The notes under the pieces were generated by a model. The model was given only the letters and a program-made list of their open reading frames with translations. It was not told the DNA's origin and did no database searches. This document shows, one piece after another, positions 5,078-63,869 of a DNA stretch of 64,000 nucleotides. Location: positions 38,683-102,682 of the forward strand of contig CAWACZ010000006.1 of NCBI GenBank assembly GCA_963780685.1, in the 5' to 3' direction. How positions within the stretch are numbered: position 1 is the first letter of the stretch; every line of letters starts with the position of its first letter. Source of the DNA: an uncultured Acidobacteriota bacterium. GTDB lineage: Bacteria; Acidobacteriota; Vicinamibacteria; Vicinamibacterales; CAVVIG01. The position numbers and the translations under genes are program-made.

Positions 5078-6095
5078 ATGAGTCGAGTGTTCCTAATCGC
5101 TCTTGTCCTGCTGGCGACGACCGAGACCACGTGGACGCAGCAGCCACGGACGCACGATCTGCGTCTGGCGCCCGAGCACATACACTGGGGCTACTACGAT
5201 GCGCGTGTGCCGCCAGTACCTGCGGATCGGTTCCGGCGACCGCGTACGGGTCGAAACGATGGTCGCGGGCGGACTGCAGCGGGTCAGGTTGGCGGGCATC
5301 AGCGAGTCTGAGATTCCGGAGGCTCTGAAGACCATCGAGCTGCGTGTCACCGAGCGGGGTCCCGGGGCGCATCCATTGACCGGACCGATCCTGGTCGAGG
5401 GCGCCGAGCCCGGTGACGCGCTCGAAATACGTATTCTGGCGATCGAGTTTCTACATCCGTTCGGCGTCGTTGCATTCAGTCCCGGCGGCGGCGTCATTCC
5501 AAGTGACTTTCCCTACGCGCATTTCCGGCTGCTGCGCTGGCAGCTCGGTTCGGACCGCGTCGAGTTCGGTTCCAGCGTCTCGCTCAGGCTCGCGCCTTTC
5601 TTCGGCTCGATTGGGGTCGCACCACCGCCGCTCGTCGGCAGAATCTCGAGCCGGCCGCCAGCGTGGCATGGTGGCAATCTCGACAACAAGGATCTCGTGG
5701 CGGGGTCTACTTTGTATCTGCCCGTGCACGTGCCAGGTGCCCTCCTTTCGATCGGCGACGGCCACGGCATGCAGGGTGATGGCGAAGTGACGGGCACGGC
5801 CCTGGAGACGTCGCTTCGGGGCACATTCGAGGTGCGCGTTCGCAAGGGTCAGCGGCTGCGCTGGCCCCGTGCGGAGACCCCAACGCACTACATCAGCATG
5901 GGACTCGACGAGGATCTCGACGAGGCGACACGACTCGCCACTCGTGAACTGGTCGAGTTTCTCGTCGCGGAGAAAGGGCTGTCACGGGACGATGCGTACG
6001 TGTTGTGTTCCCTGGCGGCCGATCTGCACGTGACGCAGGCTGTTGATCAGACGAAGGGCGTGCACGCGACGATCGCGAAGTCGCTCTTCAAGTAG
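5078..6095 (+). pseudogene. acetamidase/formamidase family protein with signal peptide, one +1 frame disruption
   Basis: The signal peptide and N-terminus (MSRVFLIALVLLATTE...HIHWGYYDARVPPV) lie in the frame of ORF 5003..5311. The rest (LRIGSGDRVRVETM...GDGHGMQGDGEV...) lies in ORF 5103..6095. The switch is at gtacc 5216-5220. Confidence 0.8.
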
Positions 6096-6098
6096 CGG

Positions 6099-7145
6099 TT
6101 GGTTTTCCTTCCAATCCTTTCGATCGGTTGCATATCACATGTGACTTATACGACCTCCGATCGCATTGCTGGCTGCCTGAAGGGCATCGCCGCCGGGGAT
6201 GCCGTCGGCAAGCAAACGGAGATGCTCTCGCCCGAGAACGTGCGGCGTTGGTATCCGCACGGAATCCGAGGCTTCGAGGGACCGCCCGGCGCCATCATTC
6301 CTCGATACGTGGGCAATTCAAGACACGAGTGGCGGATCGGCGAGACCACGGATGACACCGAGCGGACCGTTGCTGTTGCTCGAGCGATCATTGCCGAACG
6401 TCGTGTGTCGCATGAAAGCATCGGTCGGGAAATGCTTGGATGTACCAAATGCGTGCATCCCGGTGTGCAATCGTTGTGGGAGTTTCACCAAGCCGCCGAT
6501 CCCATGCGGATCGCAACGACCCACGACGGGTGTGGGGCAGCGATTCGTGTGGCGCCCGTTGGCATCTTCTATCGTTCGGACTGTTTGGACGAATTGGTGA
6601 GTGGCGCCCGCGAGGCATCCATCTCGACACACGGCGGCTCGTTGGCTATCGCTGCCGCCGCAGCGACTGCCGCAGCGGTTTCGGCAGCCATCGATGCAGT
6701 CCCTCAGCATCAGATTCTCGAGCTTGCCGGGCGGGCCGCGACGATGGCAGAGATCCGATGGTCGGGCCGAGCCGCGGTCGTTTTCGCGACCGCCCTGCGC
6801 GCCGTGCACGAAGACCTGGCCAGCTTACCTGCACTGCAAGCACAAGAAGTGGCAGCGCGCTGCTTTCCGGATCGGCCGCTGACGATCGTGCCCTTGGCGC
6901 TGGCGCTCGCCGCGCTCCTGCCGTCGGCGGAAACCGCGATTCTTCTGGCCGCGAACATCGGTGGAGACAGCGATTCGGTCGCCTCTGTTGCCGGCGGGAT
7001 TCTCGGGGCGCTGCACCCGTCCACGGTCAATCAACGCTGGCACGAGGTCGTCGAACGCGTCAACGAGCACGACCTTGTGGCCCTTGCCGGAGAACTTGCC
7101 TCGCTCCGACGCGGATGTTCAGATTCGGGAATCCGTGGCGCCTGA
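6099..7145 (+). CDS. ADP-ribosylglycohydrolase family protein
   Basis: N-terminal DRIAGCLKGIAAGDAVGKQTE and C-terminal NIGGDSDSVASVAGGILGA are typical ARH metal-site blocks. The real start may be GTG 6141. Confidence 0.85.
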   Translation: MVFLPILSIGCISHVTYTTSDRIAGCLKGIAAGDAVGKQTEMLSPENVRRWYPHGIRGFEGPPGAIIPRYVGNSRHEWRIGETTDDTERTVAVARAIIAERRVSHESIGREMLGCTKCVHPGVQSLWEFHQAADPMRIATTHDGCGAAIRVAPVGIFYRSDCLDELVSGAREASISTHGGSLAIAAAAATAAAVSAAIDAVPQHQILELAGRAATMAEIRWSGRAAVVFATALRAVHEDLASLPALQAQEVAARCFPDRPLTIVPLALALAALLPSAETAILLAANIGGDSDSVASVAGGILGALHPSTVNQRWHEVVERVNEHDLVALAGELASLRRGCSDSGIRGA

Positions 7146-10012: not shown

Positions 10013-10082
10013 CAACACGTCGGCGGCAGGCGACTACAATGATCGCGTAGGTCACGTGCGGGACCTTGGCAGGGAGACTTCA

Positions 10083-11055
10083 ATGATGCGTGCCTGGCAG
10101 ATGAGGGCGATGGTCGCGGCGGTGGTTGCGGTGTCCGTGTCGTCGTGTGCGCGGCAGGTGGAGGGCGACCGTATCGCCGTCTTCACAAAGAACCAGACCA
10201 ATCCCTTTTTCCAAACAGTGCGTCTTGGCGCGGACAGCGCAGCCAGGCAGATGAAGGCGACCGTCGTGCACTACATTCCCACGCAGCCGGACAGCATCCC
10301 TGAGCAGATGAGCCAGATCGAAGATGTCGTCACCAAGCGTCCGAGTGCAGTGGTCTTTATTCCCGTCGACTCGAAGGCCATGGTTCCCGGCGTGCAGAAG
10401 ATGAACGCTGCCGCCATTCCGGTCGTCAACATCGTCGACCATTCACTAGGAGGAGAGCTCCTGAGCTGGGTGGGCTCCGATCGAGTACAGCATGGGGCTG
10501 CTGACCGGGCGGTACCTGCTGCAGAAGATGAACGGCCAGGGCAACGTCATCATCATCGAGGGAGTGCGCGGATCGCTCGGAAGCAACGAACGAGTGCGCG
10601 GCTTCCAGAAAGCACTCGAGGAATTCCCTCAGGCCAAGCTCCTTTCCTCGCAACCCGGAAACTTCCAGCGGCTTCAGGCGCTGCAGGTGACCGAAAACCT
10701 GCTGCAGGCGCACCCGGTGGTCGATGGCATCATGGCCGCCAATGACGCCATGGCCCTCGGGGTGATCGAAGCCTTGGACGCGACGAACCGAAAAGCGCTC
10801 GTTGTCGGCCTCAACGGGACGAAGGAAGCGATCGACGCCATCAAAGCGGGCAAGCTCCTGGCGTCTGGAGAGTTCAACGGCTACTTGCAGGGCTGCATCG
10901 GCACGATGGCCGCCATTCGCCACGTTCGCAAGTTGCCGGTCCCGAAGTCCTTCAGCTTCCCGCCGCGCGTCATCGACAGCACCAACTACCATGGGCTGGA
11001 TGTACCGGAATCGGAGCGCGAGTGCCCCGAATGGGAGACGGTGATTAAGGGATAG
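10083..11055 (+). pseudogene. sugar ABC transporter periplasmic binding lipoprotein (ribose-binding-like), one +1 frame disruption
   Basis: Lipobox VSVSSC. The N-lobe is in ORF 10056..10745 up to SWVGSD. The remainder (MGLLTGRYLL...NVIIIEG...GIMAANDAMALG) is in ORF 10492..11055. The switch is near 10480-10490. Confidence 0.85.
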
Positions 11056-15462: not shown

Positions 15463-16211
15463 CTACCTTCCGCCCGTCACGTCCACGAACGCGCCTGTCG
15501 TGAAAGAAGCCTCTTCGGACAGCAGCCAGAGAATGGCCTTCGCGACCTCGTCCGGATTCCCGCCGCGTTTCATCGGCACGAACGCCTTGACGCGATCGAC
15601 GCGATTCGGCTCGCCGCCGCTCGCATGAAGCTCCGTGTAGATGAATCCGGGCCGAACGGCGTTCACCCGGATCCCTTCCTCCGCAACCTCTCGCGCGAGT
15701 CCGATGGTCAACGTGTCCATCGCCCCCTTCGAGGCGGCATAGTCGACGTATTCTCCTGGAGAGCCGAGCCGCGAGGCCCCGGACGACACGTTGACAATCG
15801 CGCCCGCCGGCGCCGCCGCGCTTCGTGGACATCCGGCGCACGGCCTCGCGAGCGCAGACAAAAGCGCTGACGACATTGGTCGCCAGGACTCGTTGCACGC
15901 GCGCGGCAGTCCATCTGCTCGACGCGCATCTGAGTCTCCACGATCCCGACATTGTTCACGAGCGCTGTCAGCGTGCCGAGCTTTGCGTCGCAGGTCTCGA
16001 ACAGGCGCACGACGTCCGCCTCCACCGAAACGTCGGCCGCCACCGCAATCGCGCTCCTCCCCTGGGCCTCGACGGCCTTGACGACGCGCTCGGCCGCGTC
16101 GCGTTGTCGACGATAGTTCACGCACACCGAGTATCCGCGCTCGGCGGCCAGTTGCGCGGTGGCGGCTCCGATGCCGCGACTGCCGCCAGTGACGAGGAGG
16201 ATTTTATTCAC
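15463..16211 (-). pseudogene. short-chain dehydrogenase/reductase, two +1 frame disruptions
   Basis: The protein runs through three frames: VNKILLVTGGSRGIGAATA...NNVGIVE (frame of 15708..16415), then AARVQRVLATNVVSAFVCAREAVRRMSTKRGGAGG (frame of 15440..15952), then AIVNVSSGASRLG...YAASKGAMD (frame of 15463..16125). GTG 16211 overlaps the upstream TGA. Confidence 0.8.
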
Positions 16212-18961: not shown

Positions 18962-20234
18962 ATGCAGGTCGCCACAGAAGTCACAGAGCGCGTCTTCGCC
19001 AAAATCACCTGGCGACTGATGCCATTTCTCATCGTCGCCTACGTCCTGAACTATCTCGATCGAAACAATGTCGGCTTTGCCGCGTTGACGATGAACCAAG
19101 AGCTCGGGTTGACGCCGCTGCAGTTCGGCAATGCGAGTGGCATCCTCTTTCTCGGCTACTGCTTCTTCGAAATACCCAGCAACATCGCCTTGTATCGCGT
19201 CGGGGCGCGGATCTGGCTCTCGAGGATCATGATCACCTGGGGACTCGTCTCCGCCGCGACCATCTTCGTAACGGGTGCCAACAGTCTGTATCTCCTCCGG
19301 TTCCTGCTTGGTGTGGCGGAGGCGGGATTTTTTCCTGGCGTCGCCTACTACCTCGGGACCTGGTTCCCGACCGAGTACCGCACACGGGCGATCGCCTGGT
19401 TCATGGTCGCCATCCCCGTGTCTTCGGTGATCGGCGGTCCCATCTCGGGCTTGCTATTGGCGATGGACGGTGTGGCGGGGCTGGCGGGGTGGAAGTGGTT
19501 GTTTCTCGTCGAGGGGCTGCCGGTCTGCCTGTTGGGAGTGGCCGCACTCTGGGTGCTCGCGGACCGGCCGGAGGATGCGAAGTGGCTGACCGAGGAAGAG
19601 CGGCAGATCGTTCGCGATCGCCTCGCCAGCGAGCGCCGCGAGCGCGAGGTCAAACACCTTCTTCCGGCCTTGAAAGATACACGCGTGCTGGTCCTCGCCG
19701 GCGTCCAGTTCGGCTTTCTCGTTGGATCGGTACGGCGTCGGACTGTTCCTGCCACAGATACTGAAAGAAGGCCAGCTGTCCGACATCGAAGTCGGATTCG
19801 TCTCGAGTGCCTGCTACGTCGTGGCGTCGGTTGGCATGATCGCGTGGGCGACACACGTCGAGCGACACGGCGGACGGGTAGGCAACCTCACCCTCACGTG
19901 CCTCGTCGCGGCCGTCGGATTTCTCGGCGCGATCTATTCGAGTCGATTCTGGGTCTCGATCGTCTGGCTGACGGTCGCGCTCACGGGAATCAACGCGGCT
20001 CGTGGGCTGTTTTGGACGATACCGCCGCGATTTCTGACAGGGATGGCGGCAGCCGGCGGCCTGGCCTTCATCAACTCAATCGGGACCATGGGCGGGTTCG
20101 TCGGACCGATCGTGATGGGATGGCTGACCGATCGATCCGGCTCGTTTTTCGCCGGACTCGCCGCCATGGGGGCGTTCCTGCTGCTCGCGGCCGCGTTGTC
20201 CTGGTCGCTGAAGCTGTTCGTGAAGCAGGATTAG
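18962..20234 (+). pseudogene. MFS transporter (anion:cation symporter-like), one +1 frame disruption
   Basis: TM1-6 are in ORF 18962..20278 up to GVQFGFLVGS. TM7-12 (YGVGLFLPQIL...GGFVGPIVMGWLTD) are in ORF 19722..20234. The switch is at cggtacgg 19729-19733. Confidence 0.85.
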
Positions 20235-23190: not shown

Positions 23191-24694
23191 ATGTCGACTG
23201 TGACTGCACCCGCTCTCGTGCAATACAAGATGTACATCGGCGGCGAGTGGGTGGATAGCGAGTCGGGCCAGAGCTTCGAGAGCGACAATCCCTACACCGG
23301 CCGGCCTTGGGCACAGATCCCTCGGGGGACGGCCGCTGATGCCGACCGCGCCGCCCGAGCGGCGCATCATGCGTTCACTTCCGGCGATTGGCCGAAGCTG
23401 ACGCCGTCGCGTCGGGGCGCGCTTCTTCGTCGGCTCGGCGACCTGGTGGCCGATCGGTCGAAGGCGCTCGCTGAAATCGAGGTACGCGACAACGGCAAGC
23501 TGTACGCCGAAATGCACGGGCAGGTCGCGTACATGGCCCACTGGTTCCACTATTACGCAGGTCTGGCCGACAAGATCGAGGGTTCGGTCATTCCCCTCGA
23601 CAAGACCGACTACCTCAACTACACGCGCCTCGAACCTCTCGGCGTCGTGGCGGCCATAGTCCCCTGGAATTCTCCGTTGCTGCTCGCCGCGTGGAAGCTT
23701 GCTCCCGCGCTCGCGGCCGGCAATACCGCAGTCATCAAGCCGTCCGAGTACACATCCGCGTCGATTCTCGATTTCATGAAGCTGGTCGAAGATGCCGGCT
23801 TTCCGCCCGGCGTCGTGAACGTCGTGACCGGCTTCGGGACCGAGGTCGGCATGCCGCTGGTCGAGCATCCGCTCGTGGCCAAGGTGGCGTTCACCGGATT
23901 CTGACGCGACCGGCCAGCGGATCTACGAAGCGGCGGCGCGCGGGATGAAGCGGGTCACGATGGAGCTCGGTGGCAAGTCGCCGAACATCGTCTTCGAGGA
24001 CGCGGATCTTGACGATGCGGTCAAGGGAGTCGTGTCGGGTATTTTGGCGGCCACCGGTCAAACGTGCGTCGCCGGTTCGAGACTCCTTCTCCAGGACACC
24101 GTTCACGATCGATTCGTCGAGAAGCTGGTCGCGTTGTTCAGGACCGCCAAGATGGGCGACCCAATGAGCCCGCAGACACAGATAGGGCCGATCGCCAACA
24201 GACCTCAGCTCGAGAAGATCTTGAAGTACATCGAGATCGCCAAAGGCGAGAATGCCACGCTCGTTCTGGGTGGGGGCCGCGCCTCTCGACCCGAATGCGG
24301 AGATGGCTGGTTCGTCGAGCCGACGATCTTCGATGGCGTGAAGAACAGCATGCGCATTGCACAGGAAGAGGTGTTTGGTCCCGTACTGTCGGTGCTTACG
24401 TTCAAGGACGAGGACGAAGCCGTCGCTGTCGGGAACGACGTCGCCTATGGCCTTGCGGCTGGAGTGTGGACGCAAAACATCCGCCGCGCCCTGACCATGG
24501 CGGCGCGGCTTCAGGCCGGGACCGTCTGGGTGAATACGTATCGCGCCAATAGCTGCATGTCGCCGTTCGGAGGCTACAAGCGGTCGGGATTCGGGCGCGA
24601 AGGCGGGAAGGACATGATCTACGAATACCTGCAGACGAAGAGCGTTTGGATCTCGACCGCGACGGACGTACCGAATCCGTTCGTGCAGCGCTAG
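23191..24694 (+). pseudogene. NAD(P)-dependent aldehyde dehydrogenase, one +1 frame disruption
   Basis: ORF 23191..23904 ends ...HPLVAKVAFTGF*. The next frame continues SDATGQRIYEAAARGMKRVTMELGGKSPNIVF...GQTCVAGSR. The FTGS motif is restored by removing one nt at 23898-23900. Confidence 0.9.
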
Positions 24695-26599: not shown

Positions 26600-27248
26600 C
26601 TATTGAACGACCGTTCGTCGCATCTTCAGATCCACCTCGAGCTGAATGTCATCGTTGACGCTGACGAGTCCCAGCAGCTTGGGAATGGTGAGCTTGAACT
26701 TGGAGAATGGAAATCGGGTAGTGGCACGACCGGTGACGACATCGGTCCCGAGGTTGCCGGTGACGTTCCAGGATACCTCTGACGTCACGCCATGAACGGC
26801 GAGGTCGCCGATCAGCTGGAACGAGACGCTCCCAGTCGAAGGAAGCGGAAAGGTCAGGCCTTCGGTTCGCCGCGCCTGGAACTCGGCGATCGGGAATCGA
26901 TCGGTTTGCAGTGTTCGTTCACGGGAGGTACGCGTCGCGTCGCTGTTCGTCGCTCTTCAAGGTGCGCAGATCGATGCGCAGTCTGGACTGGTCGGCCTCG
27001 ATCGACCCGTCCGCCGAAAAGTGGAGACGTCCGGTCACGGTCTGCGTCGTACCGACCGCGTCGTTCGGAAAATTGAGCCGGGCGAGCTGTTCACGCACTC
27101 GATACGATGCCGAGCTGCCCGGCGCGACATCGAGCCGGACCGCGCCAGCCCGAGACGGAATCGAATGATTCTGCGCCCACAGCGGCGGAACACCGGCACC
27201 GAGCACAGCGAAGGTCAACAGTCCCGCGAGATGCCAGCGATGTCTCAT
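26600..27248 (-). pseudogene. YceI-like periplasmic protein, one +1 frame disruption
   Basis: The signal peptide and N-terminal half are in ORF 26919..27446 from MRHRWHLAGLL to ...DEQRRDAYL. The rest (RERTLQTDRFPIAEF...GDLAVHGVTSEVSWNVTG...) is in the frame of ORF 26600..26788. The switch is at GGTAC 26926-26930. Confidence 0.75.
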
Positions 27249-28909: not shown

Positions 28910-30223
28910 TGGGGGTTGCATCGCCGGCGGTGAACTGACGACCTCGCGTCTCGGGTCCCAGCCAAATCATCAGCGTCGCCAACAGCCCCGACGCCAACAT
29001 TGCCGTCGTCATGGCATTCACGAGCGGGACGCCCCTGTCCTGCATCATGCCCAGCACCAGCGGCATCACGGCGCCGATGGCTGCGCCGGCGTGATAGGTG
29101 AACCCCGGACCTACGCCGCGGGTGGACGTCGGAAACCGCTCGCTGACGTAGGCGGGCGCCATGCCCCAAATGCCCATGCCAAACGCGCCCATCATCAGTG
29201 CGCCGAGCCACAAGGTCGTGGGCGTCTCGGCATGCAAGTACAACGGCAGCGACGCCATGCCAAGCGCCATCGTGATAGTGACCGCCCCACGACGGCCGAG
29301 CGCGGTCTCCGAAAGCCTGCCCCAGCCGGCCGTGCCGACGATGGCGCCGACGTTGAACGCCGCCAGGTAGGGAAGCATCGGTCGCCCGATTCGCGCAGGA
29401 ACGTCGGATACCAGTAGTTGACCGAATAGTAGACGCACATGAACGCCCCGATCACCGCGGTCGTCTGGATCGTCGTGCCGATCAGATCTCTTTGAAAGAT
29501 CCGCACCAGCGATATTTTCGGCTCGGTGCTCTGGCGGCCGGTCCGCGCGGCCTCCTTCACGATTCGCTGCTGCTCGAGCCAGATCGGGCTCTCCTGAACG
29601 TTTCGTCGAATCCAGAGCGTGAGGAGCGCCGGAACGATGGCGATCCAGAACATCGCGCGCCACGCCAGATCTGGCGTTCCACTGAACAAGGGGTAGACGA
29701 ACTGAAATGTGGCCGCGGCCAGCAGGTATCCCCAGTACCAGCCTCCCAGCAGCAGCCCGGACGCGAGACCACGCAACTTCGTCGGCCAATGCTCGAGGAC
29801 GAGCGGCATACCCGCCGCCCACTCGCCGCCCATGCCGATGCCAAACAGCGCGCGCAAGGCGAACAGCATCGTGTAGGACGTCGAGAAGCCGCTCAGGAAT
29901 GCGAAGAGCGAGAACCACAGCACCGAAAGCATCAGAGGCAGCTTGCGGCCCCACTTATCCGCGATGGTGCCGGCCGCCGCGCCACCGACGAGACGCATGA
30001 TGAGCGTGACCGTCCCGAGCGCGCCCGCCAGCGCGCGGTCCACGGTGAAGCTGTTCTGGATGTCGATGAGGATGAACGTCATGATGTTGAAGTCGAACGC
30101 ATCGACGACCCAGCCGAGAAAGACGGCCCAGAAGGCACGCCACTGATCGCGGCTGACCTGCAAGTACCACGCTTTCGCAGGTGTGTCGATCGGTACGACG
30201 TCAACGACTTCGTGAGTGCTCAC
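28893..30223 (-). pseudogene. MFS transporter (sialate/aromatic-acid transporter-like), one frame disruption needing +1 nt
   Basis: TM1-7 are in ORF 29195..30223 up to YWYPTFLRESG. The remainder (RPMLPYLAAFNVGAIVG...SERFPTSTRGVGPGF...) is in ORF 28893..29954. The switch is near 29380-29395. Confidence 0.85.
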
Positions 30224-32707: not shown

Positions 32708-34118
32708 GTGAGGGCAGAACCGCATTCGTGGTCTAATGTGTCCGCTGTGCGCGCGTTGATTGGTGCTTTCGGCCTCGCCTTTGCCGTGTCTATCGGGGCA
32801 GCAATGCAGGATCCGACGCTCGTGACCAACCCTCCGGAGCGCTTCTCCATGCGAGTCGTCGCGTCTGGCCTCGACGGTCCCTGGGAGCTCACGTGGGGCC
32901 CGGATGGGCAGTTGTGGGTGACCGAGCGGAAGGCCAGGCGCGTAATCCGCATCAACCCGACCGACGGCACCCGTAGCACGCTGCTCACACTGCACGAGGT
33001 CCATCAGAGCGTTCCGCAGGACGGGCTACTCGGCATGGCGCTGCACCCCGACTTTCTTCGCGGCAGCGATTTCGTATTTCTTGCGTTCACTTACGACGAT
33101 GCTCCGGGACCCGCACTGGCGCGGCGGATGGCCATCCGCAGATATCAGTACCGACCAGACGGCGCGAAGACTGACGAAACCCGAAGACGTGCTGACCGGC
33201 CTGCCGACGCATGACGACCACGTCGGTGGCCGACTGGCCATCGGTCCCGATCGCAAGCTCTACCTGAGCATTGGCGATCAAGGGAGCAATTTCGCCGGCA
33301 ACCGCTGTAATGCCAACCACGCCCAGGATTTGCCGACGTCGGCTCAGGTCCGTGCCAAGGACTGGTCGCACTACCAGGGCAAGATCCTGCGGATCAATCT
33401 CGACGGGTCGATTCCGCCGGACAACCCTGAGATCGACGGCGTCCGCAGCCATGTGTTCTCTTACGGCCACCGCAACCAGCTCGGGTTGGTCTTCGGGCCG
33501 CAGGGGTTCTTGTACGAGTCCGAGCACGGGCCCAGCACGGATGACGAGGTCAACCTCGTCGAGAGCGGCCGGAACTACGGCTGGCCGAACGTCGCGGGAT
33601 ATCGCGACGACAAGGCCTACGTGTACGCCAACTGGTCGGCCTCCAAGACACAACGGTGCAGCGATCTACCTCCAGACAACACCGTTCCGGCATCTGTCCC
33701 CACAGTGAACGAGACGGCATGGAACGACGCTCGCTTTGCAGGGCCACTTCGCACGTTCTTTACGGTCGAGACCGGCTACGACATCCGTGCCATCGGGAGC
33801 GCCACGATTGCCCCTGGAGGGATTGACATCTACACATCGAACGTCATTCCAGGCTGGCGCAATTCGTTGTTATCGCTCAGCCTGATCAGAGGCGCAGTCT
33901 TTCGACTGAAGCTCAGTGACGACGGCCGGTCGGTGATGGGGGCACCGACCGAGATGATTCCGACGGCGAATCGCTATCGCGACATCGCCTTGAATCCGGA
34001 CGGGCGGACGATCTATCTGGCAACCGATTCCGAGGGTCCGAGCCGCGACCCATCGGGCGCCCGGCGGGTACTGGCGCACCCGGGTAGCATCCTGGAGTTC
34101 ACGTACACGGCGAATTGA
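32708..34118 (+). pseudogene. PQQ-dependent soluble sugar (glucose/sorbosone) dehydrogenase, one +1 frame disruption
   Basis: The N-terminal part is in ORF 32708..33214 (GLDGPWELTWGPDGQLWVTER...GLLGMALHPDF) up to RRYQY. The rest (DQTARRL...HVGGRLAIGPDRKLYLSIGDQG...HGPSTDDEVNLVESGRNYGWP) is in ORF 33081..34118. The switch is at gtacc 33148-33152. Confidence 0.85.
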
Positions 34119-35390: not shown

Positions 35391-37009
35391 ATGGCCATTC
35401 CGCCCGGTGTCAGTCAACGAGATTGGACCGCCGCTCTGGACCAGTTCACGCAGACAGTCGGCGCGACTTGGTTGTTCACGAGCGACGACGATATCGCTCT
35501 GTATCGGGATGCGTACTCGCCTCTCTGGGGGGAACCCGAGGAACGGCTCGTTTCGGCGGCGGTCGCGCCCGATACGGCCGAGCAGGTGTCGCGAATTGTC
35601 CAAATCGCAAATCGGGTCAAGATTCCGCTCTTTCCGATCTCGACCGGCAAGAACCTCGGCTACGGCGGTTCCGCTCCGAACCTCTCCGGAAGCGTCGTCG
35701 TCGACCTCAAGCGAATGAACCGTGTCATCGAGGTCGACGACAAACGACATTTCGCCATCGTCGAACCCGGAGTTGCGTACTTCGATCTGTACAGGCACAT
35801 CCAGGATCGCGGGCTGAAGGTGTGGATCGACTGCCCCGATCCCGGGTGGGGCAGTCCGGTCGGCAACGCTCTGGACCACGGGGTGGGATACACGTTCGGC
35901 GCGTTTCGCGACCACTTTCACTCGCATTGCGGCATGGAGGTGGTCCTGCCGAACGGCGATATCGTTCGCACCGGGATGGGTGCTCTGCCTGGTTCGAAGA
36001 CCTGGGCCGAGTACCGCTATGGGTTCGGCCCGACGGTGGACGGACTCTTCGCGCAAGGGAACCTCGGCATCGTCACGAAGATGGGATTTCATCTGCTACC
36101 GGCGCCCGAGGCGTACCAGAACAGCGTCGTCACGGTACCCAGGCGCAACGACATTGTGGCGCTTGTCGAGATCATCAACGAGCTCGAGCACGGAGGACTG
36201 ATCGGCATGCCGGTGTACGGGAGTCCACTGGGTGGATTTGGCCCTCCCTCTCCTGAGGTAGCCGCGTTGATCAACAAGCCGGGTGGAGCGACCGCGCAAG
36301 AGTTCGACCAGTACGCGCAGCGTCAGAACCGCGGATCGTGGAGCTGCCGAATGCAGTTCTACGGATCGCCGAAGGTGGTGGCCTCGCACCTCGACCACGC
36401 CAAGGATCGATTCACGGCAACCGTGCCCGGCGTCACGTTTCAGGATGGCGAGCTTCTTCAGTTCCCGATAACGAAGGAGCAGGCAGATCGCGCTCACAAG
36501 GTCGCGTTGGGAATTCCCAATATGGCCATCTTCTCGATTGGCGCGCGGACCGAACTGAACCCGTCACCATCGGACGGGCATTTGTGGTTCTCGCCGATCA
36601 TTCCCAAAACCGGGGATGCCGTTCTGGAAGCCCAGCGAGTCTTCATGGACGCTTTCAAGCAGCTCGGCATTCCTTCGATGGTCTCGCCGTTTACGATGCC
36701 GGCCACGTGGATGTTTCGGGCGTTCATCTTCATCATGGCATTTCCGATCTCGCGGACGAATATCGAGCAGAATAAGAAGTCACGAGAGGCGTTCCGCTAC
36801 CTGGTGAAAGTCGCCGCTGAACACGGCTGGGGCGAGTACCCGAACGGCCCCTGCCTTCCAGGACGATGTAATGGCCGCTTACTCGGTACAGCAACCACGC
36901 GCTGCTTCGCCTCCACGAGACCATCAAAGACGCCGTGGATCCCAACGGCATCATGGCGGCGGGGCGATCGGGAATCTGGCCGAAACAATTGAGGAGATCT
37001 CGCGGATGA
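35391..37009 (+). pseudogene. FAD-linked oxidase of the vanillyl-alcohol oxidase / p-cresol methylhydroxylase flavoprotein type, two +1 frame disruptions near the 3' end
   Basis: PCMH-type FAD domain (PISTGKNLGYGGSAP, VEPGVAYFDLY). The C-terminus is readable only as ...AAEHGWGEY | RTAPAFQDDVMAAYS | (Y/V)SNHALLRLHETIKDAVDPNGIMAAGRSGIWP, with switches at 36836-41 and 36885-89. The TGA overlaps the next ATG. Confidence 0.85.
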
Positions 37010-44173: not shown

Positions 44174-44174
44174 G

Positions 44175-44360: not shown

Positions 44361-46281
44361 TAGTCGTCATCCTCCTCGTCATTCTCCCCGTGGGCGTCAC
44401 TCTGGCTCCAGCGCTCGCGCTCGAACGCGAGGTGTCGCCAGGTGACGACGACCGGCGGGATCGCCAACAGCAACAGGGCCAGACCGTAGAAAATCCAGAC
44501 CGGCCTGTCGCGCTGCACCCGGATCGAATATTCCACGGGCGAGCGGTTTGCCGGGTCGCCGTCGGGTTCGACCCGCAGGTAGTAGCGACCGGCCGGCACG
44601 CTCGGCACGAGCACGCCGCCACGAGGCGACCCCGAGGCCCACGACTCGCCGTCTTCGACGCCGAAGTAGTACTCCAGCTCGCGGTCGAAGTCCAATGCGA
44701 CGCTCGTCTCGTCGTTGATGAGGGCGAGGCTCACGTGCAGCCAGTTGTTGGTCAGGTTGGTGTCGAGTGAGACATCGACGTTCGACGTGCGTCCCTCGAT
44801 CGTGAAGGGCTCGGTGACGAATGCGGCATTCGGGGAAGTCGGATCGAAGTGAAATCGACCCGTGAAGACCGTCGAGCCAGACCCGAACAGCCTGACGATG
44901 GCGACGAGGAGCACGAGCGCAGCGAGCGCGGCGAACGTGCGCCAGTACGGCCCGACCTTCTCTTTGAACGGCGACGGCTGGTTGGCGAACACGCCAACGG
45001 TGGCGGGCGGCTGCCCCTCGAGCGAGAAGGCGCGCCACACGTAGTTGCCGGGCACGTACATGCCGAGCGACCAGGTCGCCTCCGAGGCAGTCCCCTCGCG
45101 CGACAGCAGGAAAGGCGGCGCGACGTAATCCTCGACCTGCGCCGTCTCTCCCACTTTCACGACCCATGGAAACTCGCCCAGGACGAAAGCCGTTCGTGCG
45201 TGCGCCGACTGGAAGAGTTTGAACGTTCGTCCCTGCAGCTGGCGTATCGCCCGGTGCCCGACGCCATGCTCGCTCGGCGTCTCGTCCAACACGGCGATAT
45301 CCGTCCAGTGGCCGTCGTACTCGCTGAGATAACGAAATCCCTGCTGTGGATTGAACAGGACGTATTCGTCCCACCCATACGTGACGCCTTCCACGTCGAT
45401 GGTCCGGTGCTGGAATCCGACGACTTCGTAACGCGCCCCATGCCACTCGCCGCTCGTCCCGAGCGGAATCGTCGGCGCCATCTGCTCTCGATTGGTGACC
45501 CGCTGCAGAATTCCGACGTTCGCATCCGTCGCGTCGGCAATCGACCCGCAGCTGCCGCACACGACCGACTGCGAATGCCCGACGGCTCTGAGAACGAGAG
45601 GTGCGCCACACTGGCCGCAGTTGAGCGCGCCGACCGGGACCGATTTCGAGCGGTCGACGTCGCGGAGATTGTGGAGCGAAAGCGCGTCGAATGACACCCT
45701 CCGGCCGGCAAAGAACGTCGGAGGATCGTCCGTGTAGTCGATCGTGGCGACCGCCGAGTCGGCCGAACGCAGATCAGCGAAACGCGCGAGCTGGCGATTC
45801 CACGACTCGAACGGAAGCTCGCCCTCTGTGCCTCGATAGCGGGCATCGGTGATGGTGACGACTTCGAAGCGCTGGTTCCCCAAACCGACGCTCGTGCCGA
45901 GCGCGATGGCGGCGGCCGGTGGAAGTGCGATGGGTTCCGACACTCGCTCGTACACGGCGTAGCGGAGCTGGGCATCCGAAAGCCAACCCGTGCGGCCACC
46001 CTCAAAAAGCAGGTGCCACTCGCTCCACGCACCGCCGTCGGTACTCATAGGCGATGCGCCCGATGACGGTGAAACTGCGCCCCTCGAAGCGCCCGGTCGT
46101 ACCCGAGCTGGATGGGTGAGGTGTCGGGCGGTGGATCGCTGACCGTCCCGACCCGTTCGAGATCCACATCGTGTCGGACGATGATGGATCGACAATGCGG
46201 GCAGACGGTCTGGACGGATCCCGACCAGGCAAACGTCAGGGGGCCATTGCAGTTCGGACAGCCGGCCGCCGCGCGGCTCAT
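44360..46281 (-). pseudogene. tandem DUF4178 protein with two zinc ribbons, C-terminal TM and acidic tail; two +1 frame disruptions near the 5' end
   Basis: Readable as MSRAAAGCPNCNGPL...CPHCRS...PIQLG (frame of 46045..46281) | TTGRFEGRSFTVIGRIAYEY (frame of 46002..46232) | DGGAWSEWHLLFEGGRTGWLSDAQ... (frame of 44360..46513). A second CGQCGAP...CGSCGS ribbon and a second DUF4178-like repeat follow. Switches at 46099-104 and 46040-44. Confidence 0.8.
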
Positions 46282-46966: not shown

Positions 46967-47861
46967 ATGCGCGGAACACTTACGGACAACCGGCTCCTGG
47001 ACGGCCGTGCCGTCCGCGACCGCATTCTCGGGGACGTGGCCGAGCGCGTGCGCGAGGCGGCAGCGACGCACACCATCGGCCGCCTCGTGTCGATCAGCAT
47101 CGGCGAGCACAAGGAAGCGGCGGTCTACGTTCGCGGGCAGGCGAGCGCCGCGAAAAAGGTCGGTCTCCGCTTCGATGACCAGACCTGGCCAAGCACACTC
47201 AGTCATCAGGAGTGCAAGGCGCGGAATCGTGCGAATGAACGATGATCCTGAGATCCTCGGCGTCATCTTGCAGCGGCCAGTGCCCGAGCATATCCACGGC
47301 CGCTCGCTCGCATCCGCGATCCATCCCTTGAAAGACATCGAAGGCATGAACCCTGCCTCGATCGGCGACATCATCTACAACGAGCTCGCGCTGGCGCCCT
47401 GTACGGCCGCGGCGTCAGTCGAGCTGATTAAAGCGACCGGTCTCAACCTGCACGGGCTCGAGGTCGTGATGGTCGGCCACTCCGAAATTGTCGGGAAGCC
47501 CGCCGCGCTGATGCTGATGGCGCAAGGGGCGACCGTGACCGTGTGCCACCATTTGACGCGGTCGGTGGCCGCACATTCGCGTCGTGCGGATGCTGTGCTC
47601 GTCGCGGTCGGCAAGCCGAGGTTTCTGCACGCTGACATGGTGAAGCCCGGCGCCGCCGTCATCGACATCGGCATCAACCTGGTCACCGGCCCGGACGGTG
47701 AGACGATGATCGTGGGCGATGTCGATACCGATGGCGTCAAAGAGGTGGCGAGCTGGGTCACCCCGGTGCCGGGTGGCGTCGGCCCGGTGACCGTCGCCAT
47801 GTTCATGCGGAACGCGATCGCCGCGCACACGAAACAGCTCGCCGCCGGCTGGCTCGGCTGA
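46967..47861 (+). pseudogene. folD: bifunctional methylene-THF dehydrogenase/cyclohydrolase, one +1 frame disruption
   Basis: The N-terminus (LLDGRAVRDRILGDV...YVRGQASAAKKVGL) is in ORF 46967..47245. The rest (DDPEILGVILQRPVP...VVMVGHSEIVGKPAALML...TPVPGGVGPVTVAM) is in ORF 46959..47861. The switch is about 47215-47240. Confidence 0.9.
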
Positions 47862-48758: not shown

Positions 48759-49595
48759 ATGCGGTGTCTGCTCGTTTGGCTGTTCGCGCTCGTGATGAGT
48801 ACATCAGCCGGAGCGCAGTGGCTGCACCATCCTGATCCGACGATTCCGCGCCTCAAGGACGGGAAGGCAGACCTGTCGGCTCCTGTGCCACGGACGTCTG
48901 ACGACCGGCCCGATCTTTCCGGTGTTTGGCAGGTCGAGCCGTCGCCTCCCGAGGAGATCCAGCGCGTCTTCGGCGAGAACTCGGCCGGCACGGCGGTGCT
49001 GGATGCCGGTGTTCCTCGCGTCAAGTACCGGCTGAATATCCTGGCGGATTTCAAGCGCGACGAGGAGCCGATGCGACCCGAGGCCGCCGCGTTGTTCCGA
49101 CAGCGACTCGAAACTCTCGGGAAAGACATGCCCACATCGCATTGCCTGCCGGGAGGCGTGCCGTTTTCCACCCAGATCGCGCCGTTCAAATTCGTTCAGA
49201 CGCCGCGCCTGATCGTCATGCTGCTCGAAGACAACAACCCTCCGCGACAGATTTATCTCGACGGACGCCCGCTGCCCACAGATCCCCATCCGACGTGGAT
49301 GGGCTACTCGTCGGGAAAGTGGCAAGGCGACACGTTGGTCGTCGATTCGGCGGGGTTCAACGACAGGACGTGGCTTGATGGCTTCGGCCACCCGCACAGC
49401 GAAGCACTGCATCTGGTCGAGCGGTTCCGACGGCGCGACTTCGGTCACATGGACATCGAGGTCACCGTCGATGATCCGAAGATGTACACCCGGAGCTTCA
49501 CGGTCAAGTTCTCAGCACGGTTGTTGCCTGATACCGACATTTTGGAGTCGGTGTGCGCTGAGAACGAAAAGGATCGAGTGCACCTGGACCGGTAG
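48759..49595 (+). CDS. secreted conserved hypothetical protein, paralog C
   Basis: Signal peptide MRCLLVWLFALVMSTSAGAQ. Shared blocks: CLPGGVP, IYLDGRPLP, GKWQGDTLVVDSAGFND, ESVCAENEKD. Confidence 0.7.
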   Translation: MRCLLVWLFALVMSTSAGAQWLHHPDPTIPRLKDGKADLSAPVPRTSDDRPDLSGVWQVEPSPPEEIQRVFGENSAGTAVLDAGVPRVKYRLNILADFKRDEEPMRPEAAALFRQRLETLGKDMPTSHCLPGGVPFSTQIAPFKFVQTPRLIVMLLEDNNPPRQIYLDGRPLPTDPHPTWMGYSSGKWQGDTLVVDSAGFNDRTWLDGFGHPHSEALHLVERFRRRDFGHMDIEVTVDDPKMYTRSFTVKFSARLLPDTDILESVCAENEKDRVHLDR

Positions 49596-49663: not shown

Positions 49664-52325
49664 ATGACTACGGAAATCCGAATGGAACAGATTGGGCCGT
49701 ACCAGATTGAGGCCAAGCTGGGAGAAGGCGGCATGGGCGTGGTGTTTCGCGCGCTCGACACCAAGCTGCAGCCGGCCGGTCGCGATCAAGTTTCTCTCCG
49801 AGCACCTCGCCGACGCGGCCGGCCGGCGCCGGTTCCAGCGAGAAGCGCAAATGGCGTCCTCGCTGAATCATCCCCACATTCTTACGGTTCACGACATCGG
49901 CGAACTCGACGGCCGCCAGTACCTGGTCACCGAATATATCGACGGAGGCACGCTGAAGGACTGGGCGAGTGGCGGGAAGCGCACGTGGCGGGAGATCGTC
50001 GAGCTTCTGGTGGGCGTGGCCGATGGCCTGGCCACAGCCCATGCCGCCGGCATTCTGCATCGCGACATCAAGCCTGAAAACATCCTGATTACCACCACCG
50101 GATATGCCAAGCTCGCCGACTTCGGCCTGGCGAAAGTCGCAGACGTTGCCTCACCCGATGCGGCCACCCGTCCGGAAGGAGCAACCAGGCCGGGCGTCGT
50201 GGTCGGCACCATTGCCTACATGTCTCCGGAGCAAGCATCGGGAGGGCCGCTGGATGCCCGCAGCGACATCTTCTCGTTCGGCGTGGTGCTCTACGAAATG
50301 CTCGCGCGGCGCAAACCGTTTGCCGCTGCCACGGAGTTGGAGCTTCTGCACACGATCATCCACGGGAAGCCGCGACCGCTGGGCAACGATGTCTTCCCGG
50401 GGCTCCGAGCCGTTGTGGAAAAAGCACTGGAGAACGATCCACGCGACCGCTATCAGTCGATGCGGGAGATGCGTGGTGGATCTGCGTCGTCTCATCCGGC
50501 AGAGCGAGGAGATCCATTTACCTGCGGCGCCGGTTCAGGCACGCGCCTGGAAGCGGATCGCCGTTGTAGCCGGCCTCACCGCGATCCTGGTGGCGACCCT
50601 TGGGATCTGGCTATGGATGCGTCCATCCGAGCAGCCCGCATCGCCCTCGGAGTGGGTGCAGCTGACGAACTTCCCCGATTCCGTGACCCAACCCGCGCTC
50701 TCTTCAGACGGGCGCATGCTGACGTTCATCCGCGGGCCGAGCTCGTTCATCACGACAGGGCAGGTCTACGTGAAGCTGCTGCCGGACGGCGAGCCAAAGC
50801 CGTTGACTGACGACGACCTGACCAAGATGAGCCCCGTGTTTTCCCGGACGGATCTCGCATCGCCTACACCACCAGCAGCCCATGGGACACGTGGGTCGTC
50901 CCGGTGTTGGGCGGAGCGCCGCGACGATGGCTGCCGAACGCATCGGGGCTGGTGTGGAGCGGCCGGCGCAGCATCGTGTTTTCGGAGGTCGTCGACCGTC
51001 TCGAAGGCAACCACATGAAGGTGGTCGCAGCCGAAGAAAGCCGGGCAGGGCAACGCGACGTGTATGTGCCATCGCCGAAAGGTGCGATGGCGCACCGGTC
51101 GTTTCCATCACCGGACGGCAAGTGGTTGATTTTGGCCGAAATGACCGACAGGGGCGTGTGGCTTCCATGCCGCCTGGTGCCTGAAGACGGCAGCTCGATT
51201 GGACAGCCGATCGGCCCGCCCGACGCGGCGTGCTGGTTTGCCGCGTGGACACCAGACGGCAAGTGGATGTACGTCAGCTCGAACACCGGCGCCGGAACAT
51301 TTCACATCTGGCGCCAGCGTTTCTCGGCGAGCGGCTCCTCCTCGGCTCCCGAGCAGGTGACGTCAGGCCCGACGAGCGAAGAGGGCATCGCGATGGCGTC
51401 GGACGGCCGTTCGTTCATCACGGCCGTTGGCTTGGACCAGAGCGCCGTCTGGGTTCACGACTCGCGAGGGGAGCGGCAAATCTTCGTCGAAGGCCGCGCG
51501 TCTACGCCCAAGTTCAGCCCTGATGGCAAGACGCTGTTCTTCGTGGCTCAGAAGGGAACCTTCAACGAGCTTTGGTTCGCGGACGTCGCCTCAGGTCGTG
51601 CCGAGGCCCTGCTGCCGAATTTCGCCCTCGGATCCGGCGGGGTCGCAGGGGTCTACGATGTTTCTCCCGACGGCCGCCAGATCGTCGTGCAGGCCCGCGA
51701 TGTCGAAGGCAAAGACCGTGTCTGGCTTGCTCCCGTCAACCGGCGCTCGCCGCCTCGACCGATACCGAACGTGGAGGGTGATGGTCCGGTCTTTGGACCA
51801 GACGGAGAGATCTTCTTCAGGGCCAGGGAAGGGGACTATGGATTCGCGTATCGCGTGCGCGAGGACGGAAGCGGTTTGCGAAAAGCGATTGATTACCCCG
51901 TTATCGAGACAGGGAGCGTTTCCCGGGATGGCAAATGGCTCGTCAGCTATGCACGCTACGCGCGAGCCGGTGAAGAGCCCATGGGCGCCACGGTAGCGTT
52001 CCCGCTGGACGGCGGGCCCGCCAAGCGAATCTCCCCTCCCGGCAGCCCGCTGAGTTGGTCGCCAGACGGGAGGTTCCTGTTCCTGTCGGACTCGACCTCG
52101 TCGTATGGCGGGAGTGTGAGACGCACGTATGTGATTCCGCTGCCGTCGGGCCGTATCTGGCCGGAGATGCCGGCTGACGGCTTTCAGACGGCGTCGGACG
52201 TCGCGAAACTATCCGGTGTGCGTGTGATCGACGAGGCTTCTGTGGTGCCCGGTCCAACAGCGGACGTGTATACGTTCTCGCGCGAGACGATCCAGCGTAA
52301 CTTGTATCGCATTCCTATACGGTGA
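49664..52325 (+). pseudogene. Ser/Thr protein kinase, TM segment, TolB-like beta-propeller; three frame disruptions
   Basis: The N-terminus ...IGPYQIEAKLGEGGMGVVFRALDTKLQ is followed by three frame changes (at ~49770, ~50470 and ~50845). The segments after each change read RPVAIKFL...HRDIKPENIL...DFGLAK...YQSMREM, then VVDLRRL...TM...DGRMLTF...KMSPVFS, then PDGSRIAYT...PDGKW repeats. Confidence 0.85.
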
Positions 52326-61301: not shown

Positions 61302-61477
61302 GTTGGACCCGGCGGGGACCTTATCATGGACACGGCTCGTTCCGCCCTCGATTGCAGCCGAGCCGGTCCGGGCGCCCGAATCTGCACGGCCTTCGGCCCA
61401 ATCCTCGGTAGAAACCGCTTGCACGCCCTACCGGAAACAATTACGTTTGAGGCCTCACAAGCACGGGAGGGCAGTTG

Positions 61478-63869
61478 ATGACGAATAGCTGGCCGGCGTG
61501 GCTTGCCGGCTGCGTGGCGATGTCGCTGGCAACTGCGGCTTCCCTCGATGCCGGCAGGCCGCAGCCGCAGGGCGCCGTCACCTCTCCTGAATCAGCGGCA
61601 TCGGCACAAGCGACGATCAATCGGTACCTGTGTCGCGTGCCACAACGAAAGAGTCAAGACGGCAGGGTTGGCCCTGGACGTGGCAGGCATCGACCGCGTC
61701 GGCGAGCACGCCGACGTGTGGGAACAAGTCGTCCGGAAGCTTCGCGGGCGAATGATGCCTCCGGTGGGACGTCCGAGACCGGACGAAGCCTCATACGACG
61801 CCGTCGTTTCGTATCTCGAAGCCTCCCTCGATCGGGCTGCGGCCGCGGCGCCAAATCCGGGCCGGACCGAAACGTTCCGCAGGCTCAATCGAACCGAGTA
61901 CCAGAACGCGATTCGCGACCTGCTCGCCCTCGATGTCGATGTCTCGTCGCTCCTCCCGAAAGACGATGTGAGTCACGGCTTCGACAATGTCGGCACCGGC
62001 CAATTGTCGCCGACGCTGCTGGAGCGATATCTGGCCGCGGCGCAGAAGGTCAGCCGGCTCGCAGTGGGGAGCCCGCTGTCGTCGCCGGCCAGCCACATCG
62101 TCGTGCTCCCGGCGGACCTCACTCAGGAGGATCACGCAGACGGTCTCCCGTTCGGCACGCGCGGCGGGACGATGGTGCGCTACACATTCCCGCTCGACGG
62201 CGCCTACGAGATTCAGGTTCGCCTGTCGCGCGACCGCAACGAGAACGTCGAGGGACTCACCGAGCCGCATCAGGTCGAGCTCGCGCTCGACGGCACACGC
62301 GTGGAAGTGTTCACCGTGAGGCCGAACCGCAACCAGAGCGGCGCCTATTACGCGGACGAGGCAGTCGACAAGAACCTGAGAATCCGCGTGCCGGTCGGAG
62401 CCGGTCCCCACCAGCTCGCGGTCACGTTCCTGCGAAAGACGTTCGCGCTGCCGGAAACGGAGCGGCAGCCGTACCAGGCACACTTCAACATGGATCGGCA
62501 TCCACGCATTCAGCCGGCGGTGTATTCGGTGTCCATCACCGGGCCCTTCGAGCCAGGCGGGGCCGCGGACACGCCCAGCCGAAATCGGATCTTCGTGTGC
62601 CATCCCTCGGCTCCCTCGGCGGAAGCCGGCTGCGCGAAGAAGATCGTCGCAACGTTGGCGCGTCGCGCCTATCGCCGGCCCGTTTCGGATGCCGAGCTTC
62701 AGGCCCCTCTCGCTTTCTACACGGAGGCCCGCGCCGAGGGTGGGTTCGACGCCGGCATCGAGATGGCGCTCCGGGCGATTCTCGCGAGCACGGAGTTCCT
62801 GTTCCGCATCGAGCGCGATCCGCGAAATATCGCGCCAGGCACGCCCTATCGGGTCAGCGACGTGGAGCTGGCTTCGCGGCTGTCGTTCTTCCTCTGGAGC
62901 AGCGTCCCGGACGAGGAACTGCTCGACGTGGCGACTCGTGGAGCACTGAAAGAGCCGGCGGTCCTCGAACGACAGGTCCGGCGGATGCTGGCCGATTCGC
63001 GCTCTGAAGCGTTGGTCACGAACTTTGCGGGGCAGTGGCTGTACCTCAGGAATCTGGCGGCGTCGAATCCGGACGCGCGCATGTTTCCGGACTTCGACGA
63101 CAACCTGCGCCAGGCTTTCCAGCGGGAATCGGAGCTCTTCTTCGAAAGCATCGTCAAGGAAGACCACAACGTGCTCGACCTGCTGCGGGCCGACTACACG
63201 TTCGTCAACGAACGACTCGCCCGGCACTACGGGATCCCCAACGTGTACGGCAGCCGCTTCCGGCGCGTGGCGCTCGGCGACAGCGTCCGCGGCGGACTGC
63301 TCGGTCAGGGAAGCATTCTCACGGTGACGTCGTACGCGAACCGGACCTCTCCCGTGCTTCGCGGCAAGTGGGTCCTCGAGAACATCCTGGGCACGCCGCC
63401 GCCACCGCCGCCGGCGAACGTGCCGCCGCTTCCCGACAATCATGCGGGCGGCAAGGCGCTCTCGATGCGCGAGCGCATGGCGCAGCACCGGGTGAATGCC
63501 GCCTGCTCCGGTTGCCACCAACTCATGGATCCGGCAGGCCTGTCGATGGAGCATTTCGATGCGATCGGCCGCTGGCGTGCGCGTACGGAAGCAGGGACCC
63601 AAGTCGACGCATCGGGCGGTCTGCCTGACGGCTCGACGTTCGACGGTATGGCCGGGCTCCGTCGTGCGCTGCTCGGTCGTCCGGAGTTGTTCGTCTCGAC
63701 GCTCACCGAAAAGCTGCTGACGTACGCATTGGGCCGTGGGCTCGAGTCCTACGATGCCCCGGCAGTCCGTGACATTACGAGAAATGCGCGACTGAACGAC
63801 TACCGGTTCTCGTCGCTGGTGCTCGGTATCGTCACGAGCTCCCCGTTCCAGATGAGGAGGTCGCAATGA
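61478..63869 (+). pseudogene. DUF1592/DUF1588/DUF1595-type protein with N-terminal CxxCH, one +1 frame disruption
   Basis: The signal peptide and ...SAQATINRY are in ORF 61475..63007. CVACHNERVKTAGLALD and the rest are in ORF 61503..63869. The switch is at GGTACC 61623-28. A second CSGCH motif lies near the C-terminus. Confidence 0.85.

Follow-up and report, generated by a model that had tools for sequence, protein, structure and literature searches.

Classical homopolymer errors of long-read sequencing affect long runs and are mostly deletions. In bacteria sequenced with the Nanopore R10.4.1 chemistry, methylation leads to systematic, strand-specific errors that persist in assemblies (PMC11610603, PMC12392509), and methylation-aware polishing helps against them (PMC11610603, PMC12392509, PMC11649196). 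The sequence considered here is a 64-kb stretch of DNA from an uncultured Acidobacteriota bacterium of the Vicinamibacterales (GenBank assembly GCA_963780685.1, contig CAWACZ010000006.1, positions 38,683 to 102,682; G+C content 63.4%), referred to below as the window. Many of its conserved genes are broken by single-nucleotide (nt) insertions or deletions (indels), and nearly half of these lie at the palindrome GTAC. Judged from sequence comparison, the extra bases are very probably not present in the organism's DNA and would represent systematic errors of a long-read-only consensus.

Coding segments of the window and the places where the reading frame jumps were identified on a six-frame map of codon-usage log-odds, and the breaks were then fixed with homologues. 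This procedure located 19 frame-breaking indels in 14 of the approximately 58 genes. Seventeen are insertions and two are deletions, all of them of exactly one nt, and no nonsense, multi-base or insertion-sequence-type lesion was found in the 14 broken genes. A preliminary description of the same DNA had listed 18 corrections in 13 genes. All of these were reproduced, and one more was found at 48895 in a fourteenth gene, where it was concealed since the shifted frame remains open upstream. Several other suspected frameshifts (6883-7273, 43961-44366, 2073-3301, 18188-19453 and 34088-34118) were rejected as ordinary boundaries between separate genes.

The window contains 161 copies of GTAC, which together with one flanking base per side make up 1.5% of its length. 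The distance of the indels to GTAC was compared with random placement within the window, a comparison that the preliminary description had proposed for the whole genome. A GTAC is touched or directly adjoined by nine of the 19 indel intervals. Random intervals of matching width would give 0.39 (binomial tail about 5e-11), with a maximum of 4 matches in 20,000 trials. When intervals up to 5 nt from GTAC are included, the count is 10 of 19 against 0.78 expected. The association between indels and GTAC is real and beyond chance. Its effect is partial, as had been stated earlier: GTAC+C or G+GTAC is the present reading at 76 GTAC flanks and is spurious at 8 of them, and about 30 GTACGA/TCGTAC sites in the window are read correctly. 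The over-representation of GTAC relative to dinucleotide shuffles (161 vs 82) was also considered as a signal of restriction pressure and was discarded, as the excess disappears under a second-order Markov expectation (observed/expected 0.90).

Ten of the sites had originally been assigned to GTAC. Alignment of the switch points with orthologues placed eight of them exactly at the edge of the motif, to within one or two bases, while the assignment at 10485 did not stand and that at 26926 is ambiguous. At all eight exact sites the surplus base is a C directly 3' or a G directly 5' of GTAC, and GTAC itself is kept, with the added base outside the motif. Viewed on one strand, every case shows one base too many in the C-run that starts with the final base of GTAC (here and below, a raised dot marks an insertion point or a frame junction). 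Thus GTAC·GA has become GTACCGA at 19729, 33151, 36885 and 46040, GTACC·GA has become GTACCCGA at 36840 and 46103, and GTAC·TG has become GTACCTG at 5219 and 61628. On the + strand, five of the eight have the form GTAC+C and three the form G+GTAC; relative to the coding strand, the surplus base is 3' of GTAC in five cases and 5' in three. Contrary to the earlier statement, an in-frame TAC (Tyr) is not always preserved by the repair: the codon is GTA (Val) at 5216, and the codons are GGT-ACG at 46103.

Similar insertions were found in other assemblies. The closest genome relatives of a spermidine-synthase/amine-oxidase fusion gene of the window are uncultured Acidobacteriota/Vicinamibacterales metagenome-assembled genomes (MAGs), with 82-83% protein identity, and the Microflora Danica (MFD) long-read project contributed many of the further relatives, as 'MFD…bin' MAGs. 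The MAGs of that project were obtained from R10.4.1-type Nanopore reads assembled with Flye, followed by one Medaka round (model r1041_e82_400bps_sup_g615), without short-read polishing (PMC12313526). At one codon of the spermidine-synthase gene, 10 fetched loci carry GTACTGG, eight as TCGTACTGG and two as GCGTACTGG. Three of the ten, all Microflora Danica Nanopore MAGs (L008, L023 and L039), read TCGGTACTGG, a 31-nt pattern with an extra G (TCG·G·TACTGG), and each of the resulting frame junctions is backed by 34-37 homologues. The seven remaining loci have the 30-nt intact form; they comprise the MFD MAGs L013 and L083, as well as L018, L033, L074, L034 and L035, several of which have MEGAHIT/SPAdes-style contig names. 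Insertions in these other Nanopore-only MAGs are located at L008:11203, L023:11203, L039:11203 and L039:8721, and L039 has GTAC·C·GACG at a place for which L013, 95% identical to it, reads GTACGACG. Because the identical insertion occurs at a homologous codon in Nanopore-only MAGs and not in the other homologous loci, the same k-mer-context error appears to recur across independent assemblies. To judge from these sequences, the recurrence is the decisive piece of the case for an artefact.

In one further MFD locus (L010:10794-11494, MAG MFD02242), the spermidine-synthase ORF (open reading frame) has two indels, the first of them 3 nt from a GTAC, and between them it runs on out of frame for about 200 codons without meeting a stop. 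This ORF looks intact yet encodes arginine-rich nonsense. An apparent double frameshift in the 1,013-amino-acid (aa) ORF of the window was traced to this relative; the window is correct there. The surroundings of the polyamine operon, to which the gene belongs, were compared in 80 genome loci, and the synteny of the spermidine-synthase gene in these genomes stops short of the flavoprotein and the other broken genes.

The broken genes do not look like decaying ones. Synonymous changes dominate their codon differences from relatives (synonymous/non-synonymous: aldehyde dehydrogenase 110/20, sugar-binding protein 78/16, PCMH flavoprotein 171/57, second MFS transporter 87/37), as they do in intact genes (PSCyt 211/73, SDR 36/19), which points to normal coding constraint. 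In the kinase gene with three indels, each segment has 93-94% protein identity to an intact 886-aa relative. Intact relatives were also available as short metagenome contigs from the Joint Genome Institute (JGI). Six of these (L001-L006, 78-97% DNA identity) cover 20.4-34.1 kb and 47.6-61.3 kb of the window, L001 and L003 being 88-97% identical at the nt level, and relatives of the sugar-binding protein reach 94-96% aa identity. In the JGI relatives the genes are intact, and GTAC is found in the same place without the extra base. Other comparisons involved L087-L089 for the flavoprotein, L090-L093 for the sugar-binding protein, 80 metagenome loci for the DUF1592 protein and 150 library representatives for the first MFS transporter, with alignments to PDB structures as further junction evidence. 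Eight intact proteins of the window have exact matches on a single contig of the collection (516,106 bp, NCBI and ENA), and a second assembly of the same strain was not found there.

Taken together, the restriction of the lesions to ±1 nt, the normal constraint, the intact relatives and the recurrence in three Nanopore-only MAGs give indirect but concordant support to a motif-specific consensus error, one of the two explanations that had been proposed for the window. Its contig is most likely derived from an assembly of the Nanopore R10.4.1, Flye and one Medaka round type, as its relatives suggest. In such an assembly, a C-run of one or two bases beginning with the last base of GTAC would be called one C too long. 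Given that GTAC is palindromic and that both strands contribute reads, one and the same error shows on the + strand as either GTAC+C or G+GTAC, and it would be independent of gene orientation. The error would win the consensus at only about 5-10% of sites; such low penetrance would fit a call that is only marginal, perhaps with modest metagenomic coverage. Each GTAC error would split one gene into two ORFs. The other 9-11 indels would be ordinary residual long-read errors in short G/C runs, together with a possible C(C/G)GA context. As for the trigger, if the extra bases are artefactual, the balance tips slightly towards a base modification at GTAC that was outside the training of the base-caller. 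For Helicobacter pylori J99, GTAC appears in the table of recovered methylated motifs, in the 6mA (N6-methyladenine) block (PMC12679398).

The 19 indels are listed in Table 1.

Table 1. Single-nt indels located in the genes of the window. Raised dots enclose the surplus base.
Gene and extent	Indel position	Strand	Indel and context	Placement
Acetamidase/formamidase, ~5078-6095	5219..5220	+	extra C in caGTAC·C·tg	three-frame view
Ribose-type sugar-binding protein, ~10056-11055	10481..10481	+	extra T in ccGA·T·CGAgtac	
Short-chain dehydrogenase, ~15463-16210	15803..15807	-	extra base in CCC run gcgCCCgcc; GTAC not nearby	
Same short-chain dehydrogenase	15907..15909	-	extra base in cggCAGtcc; GTAC not nearby	
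MFS transporter, 18962-20234	19728..19729	+	extra G in tc·G·GTACgg	
Aldehyde dehydrogenase, ~23191-24694	23899..23902	+	extra A or T in cggATTCtga; GTAC not nearby	
YceI-like protein, ~26600-27245	26923..26927	-	extra base in GGGAG beside GTAC at 26928	
Second MFS transporter, ~28893-30223	29386..29390	-	missing base	gap vs L003-L005, junction, frames
PQQ/GSDH-type sugar dehydrogenase, ~32747-34118	33151..33152	+	extra C in caGTAC·C·ga	
PCMH/VAO-type flavoprotein, 35391-37009	36840..36842	+	extra C in gaGTACC·C·ga	
Same PCMH/VAO-type flavoprotein	36884..36885	+	extra G in tc·G·GTACag	
DUF4178 protein, 44360 to ~46283	46039..46040	-	extra + strand G in tc·G·GTACtc (coding gaGTAC·C·ga)	
Same DUF4178 protein	46103..46105	-	extra + strand C in tcGTACC·C·ga (coding ctcG·G·GTACga)	
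FolD, ~46967-47861	47223..47226	+	extra G or A in gcGGAAtcg; GTAC not nearby	
258-aa hypothetical protein, ~48818-49595	48895..48895	+	extra C in cggA·C·GTCtg	
Ser/Thr kinase with PD40/Tricorn repeats, ~49650-52325	49771..49773	+	extra base in gcaGCCggccgg	
Same kinase	50467..50472	+	extra base in ggAGATGCgtgg	gap vs L001 and L002, junction
Same kinase	50842..50846	+	missing C (C4 read as C3), tttTCCCGgac	gap vs L001, L002, junction
DUF1592/PSD-family haem protein, 61478-63869	61628..61628	+	extra C in cgGTAC·C·tgtg	

The eight exact sites were placed by several kinds of evidence. The acetamidase aligns with PDB 5ubu and 3b9t without a gap across PPVLRIGSGDRVRVET and through PPV·LRIGSGD. In the first MFS transporter, 28 homologues align without a gap at 19728/9. 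Representatives P0273, P0275 and P0288 share FGF(T/L)xGSYG(V/I)G there, and P0288 is identical across the stretch FGFLVGS·YGVG; the alignment of this transporter to DgoT has too many gaps to place the junction. The break at 33151 coincides with a DNA gap relative to L003 (88% identical, with an intact 457-aa gene) and with a tblastn junction at residues 154/155, the relative having CAGTA-CAACC and the window CAGTACCGACC. Around 36840, L088 and L089 have GAGTACCGAAC and L087 has GAGTACCGGAC; around 36885, L088 has TACTC-GTTC and L087 has TACT-GGTAC, with a tblastn junction at residues 511-513. The repaired flavoprotein has 538 aa and matches 538-aa homologues at 87-91% identity over 100% of its length. 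The two junctions of the DUF4178 protein are backed by more than 20 homologous loci and by the DNA of L010 and L011, and its protein alignment is without a gap at PIQLG·TTGRFEG (46103) and at IAYEY·DGGAWSEW (46040). In the DUF1592/PSD protein, the motif [RQK/L]-Y-C-x-x-C-H is present in 66 of 66 homologues. At 61628, relatives have CGGTACTGC and L096 has AATCGGTACTGC; Pfam PSCyt1 begins at the first Cys, and the optimum of the codon model is at 61631. As a separate observation, one PSD/DUF1592 homologue (L087:1010-1063, ENA contig_1227) has KQDRLGCH instead of the [RQK]-Y-C-x-x-C-H of the 66 others. Its Tyr and first haem-binding Cys are replaced, and here too an error of the assembly is possible, located at a TAC-TGC site.

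Two indels lie close to GTAC, one off the motif and the other probably so. In the sugar-binding protein, the surplus T is 4 nt 5' of the GTAC at 10485. Four JGI relatives (L090-L093, 94-96% aa identity) have GGCTCCGA-CGAGTAC, with the codons GAC GAG TAC and the protein sequence VGSDEYSMG, and the extra base is therefore T10481. In the YceI-like protein, the variant translations DAYL, DAYS and DAYP score 74.4, 70.8 and 70.1 bits against Pfam YceI. Removal of a base from the CCC/GGG run at 26923-25 gives the 74.4 bits, compared with 70.8 for a G+GTAC repair. The surplus base is thus probably in the GGG/CCC run, 2-4 nt from GTAC, with an ambiguous placement; a search of the PDB with this protein gave no match.

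Most of the remaining indels were placed by comparison with related sequence. DNA alignment to L088 and a tblastn frame junction located the two breaks of the short-chain dehydrogenase. The aldehyde dehydrogenase shows a gap relative to L003-L005, which have an intact 500-aa gene, at the motif FTGS·DATG, and the frame view of FolD reads ...SHQECKAR·IVRMNDDPEILGVILQ. At 48895, L001 (97% identical) has GGAGTCTG, with a tblastn junction at ORF residues 74/75, and the kinase break at 49771 is supported by a gap relative to L001, whose 886-aa gene is intact, and by the junction. Run-type indels away from GTAC consist of deletions in short G/C runs at 29389 and 50845 and an insertion in the CCC run at 15805; the first of these is probably a coding-strand G4 read as G3 (gaaTCGGG-CGA). 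Four non-GTAC insertions directly follow C(C/G)GA: GA[T]CGAG at 10481, CGGA[T]TCTG at 23899-902, CGG[A]ATCG at 47223-26 and CGGA[C]GTC at 48895, where the relative has GAGTC. C(C/G)GA or GATC/GANTC-like words may constitute a second error context, possibly a second modified motif, the cases being too few and too ambiguous for more than a suggestion. A possible additional one-base deletion was noticed at 30243-30244, where the window has GTGAA-TCAG and relatives have GTGAAGTCAG. This position coincides with the start of the second MFS gene or closely precedes it, and the start codon decides whether the deletion is inside the gene.

Several observations weigh against the consensus-error reading and its modification-based trigger. 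Published methylation-linked Nanopore errors are mainly substitutions, C-to-T and G-to-A, and a GTAC-specific +1 insertion is not described in that literature (PMC11610603, PMC12392509). A scan of window proteins, covering part of its genes, revealed no methyltransferase domain, nor did the precomputed Pfam labels of the relatives' genes, and GTAC shows no avoidance in the window, given the second-order Markov ratio above. The motif effect is also much weaker elsewhere: alignments of related MFD locus pairs contain 91 one-nt gaps in 62 kb, and five of the 91 are at GTAC (5.5% vs a background of 1.4%). The sequencing platform of the window is itself inferred from its nearest genome relatives, the Nanopore-only MFD MAGs. 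Finally, the relatives with intact genes are other strains or species, and intact genes alone are compatible with recent real mutations in the lineage of the window.

An artefact could also arise without methylation, if the base-caller or polisher simply over-calls C in the k-mers GTACGA, GTACCGA and GTACTG. This possibility competes with the methylation sub-claim only, and it is tentative, although not to be neglected. The 3' context of the eight exact sites is indeed narrow: GTAC·GA at four of them, GTACC·GA at two and GTAC·TG at two. Other lineages (L008/L023 and L039) have the error in the same contexts as the window, GTAC·C·GA or TCG·G·TAC. The per-site GTAC error rate is moreover of the same order in the related MFD loci (about 2%) as in the window (about 5%). 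However, a k-mer of this ordinary, non-homopolymer kind could not fail generally without being noticed, and two MFD MAGs with the same TCGTACTGG were read correctly. R10.4.1 assemblies of isolates can be near-perfect, and their residual errors concentrate in strains with particular methylation (PMC11649196, PMC11610603).

The second explanation proposed earlier was a genuine +1 insertion hotspot at GTAC acting in vivo, for example through an enzyme whose repair duplicates the flanking base, with recent and widespread pseudogenisation. The very strong association with a palindrome on duplex DNA would fit such a process, lesions missing from related strains are expected of recent mutations, and recurrence in several lineages could mean a shared enzyme. 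Nevertheless, it would have inactivated about 24% of the genes, including FolD, aldehyde dehydrogenase and transporters, and constraint is unrelaxed and the count of nonsense or multi-base lesions is zero. The identical insertion at a homologous codon is seen only in Nanopore-only MAGs and never in other loci with the same sequence, and non-GTAC indels of the usual long-read kind occur alongside. Enzymes of the RsaI type (GT^AC) and the CviQI type (G^TAC) cut within the site. A cut-and-repair scar should therefore fall inside the site and destroy GTAC, whereas here the site is kept, with the added base outside it at eight of eight sites, and the neighbouring run is lengthened; a restriction-cut and repair scar was rejected on this ground. 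The hotspot is accordingly disfavoured as very improbable. Equally hard to credit is a GTAC-recognising activity that duplicates the flanking base in several soil Acidobacteriota lineages, which needs the correlation with the platform to be a sampling coincidence.

Programmed recoding, either by ribosomal +1/-1 frameshifting or by transcriptional slippage at GTAC-containing signals, can be given hardly any weight. Downstream frames are intact and full-length products conserved, which would fit recoding, but the surplus base can be either 5' or 3' of GTAC on the coding strand. The argument that both orientations exclude a ribosomal cause was thus correct in the preliminary description. Slippery heptamers and long runs are also absent at the switch points, orthologues encode the same proteins in a single frame, and some genes would require two or three events. 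Phase-variable contingency loci, considered for the same breaks, were rejected because slipped-strand mispairing needs a long homopolymer or tandem repeat and the runs here have 1-3 bases. An association produced by chance or by placement bias, i.e. by picking GTAC inside ambiguous intervals, accounts for two of the ten original sites (10485 and 26926), which had been put on GTAC without warrant, and is negligible for the rest, since independent homologue alignments fixed eight sites to 1-2 bases and random intervals of the same widths match GTAC far too rarely.

If the artefact reading is true, a public assembly presents about one in four genes of the window as falsely split or truncated. The GTAC+C / G+GTAC signature, especially GTAC-C-GA and GTAC-C-TG, is simple to search for and explains close to half of the damage. 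In work on long-read-only MAGs from these soil lineages, the errors would affect gene catalogues, counts of pseudogenes, estimates of completeness and inferences on metabolism, and motif-aware or frame-aware polishing is indicated as a cheap remedy. As a further hint, the GTAC of these Acidobacteriota may carry a modification. The importance of the finding is practical and concerns the data quality of MAG catalogues built from long reads alone; it does not reveal a biological mechanism that is new.

The window has other features of note. A non-coding repeat of about 690 bp is present at 13058-13722 and, inverted and 39 kb apart, at 52436-53228 (86-89% identity), with a third, partial copy at 11262-11547; it also occurs in the relatives L003, L005 and L090. 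A separate 107-bp inverted repeat pair is located at 20275-20380 and 24733-24838 (94% identity), and no Rfam family or tRNA match was obtained. A conserved polyamine gene cluster occupies 40915-46772 on the - strand. It includes the 1,013-aa fusion, which joins a membrane spermidine-synthase-like domain to an FAD amine-oxidase-like domain, and genes for a DUF350 protein, a small membrane protein, the DUF4178 protein and an S-adenosylmethionine decarboxylase. The fusion gene was found in many phyla by the genome scan, and DUF4178 adjoins it in more than 20 loci. Two tandem DUF6644 paralogues (34115-34609 and 34735-35241) are directly upstream of the p-cresol-methylhydroxylase-like flavoprotein and its cytochrome c partner.

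Three described situations resemble the one in the window. Genuine pseudogene accumulation in decaying genomes likewise leaves many conserved genes interrupted by frameshifts; the window differs in having no mixed lesion types, relaxed selection or loss of coding density, and its lesions follow the sequencing platform across assemblies. Homopolymer-length indel errors, which split ORFs in long-read MAGs, share the ±1 change of run length that breaks an ORF. Sites of this type do exist in the window (C4 to C3 at 50845, the CCC run at 15805 and probably G4 to G3 at 29389), but the GTAC errors lengthen runs of only 1-2 bases and only beside a specific motif. The third situation is that of modification-induced Nanopore errors, known for Dam GATC, Dcm CCWGG, CcrM GANTC and strain-specific motifs. 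Those errors are chiefly substitutions, whereas the errors of the window are +1 over-calls of the C-run from the last GTAC base, and GTAC is not among the motifs discussed for them, its modification here being hypothetical (PMC11610603, PMC12392509, PMC11649196). The likeness lies in a short, organism-dependent motif with partial penetrance, and in a dependence on the read strand through which a palindrome is affected on either side. Modification-induced errors also survive consensus and Medaka polishing, and they disappear in orthogonal data (PMC11610603, PMC12392509, PMC11649196).

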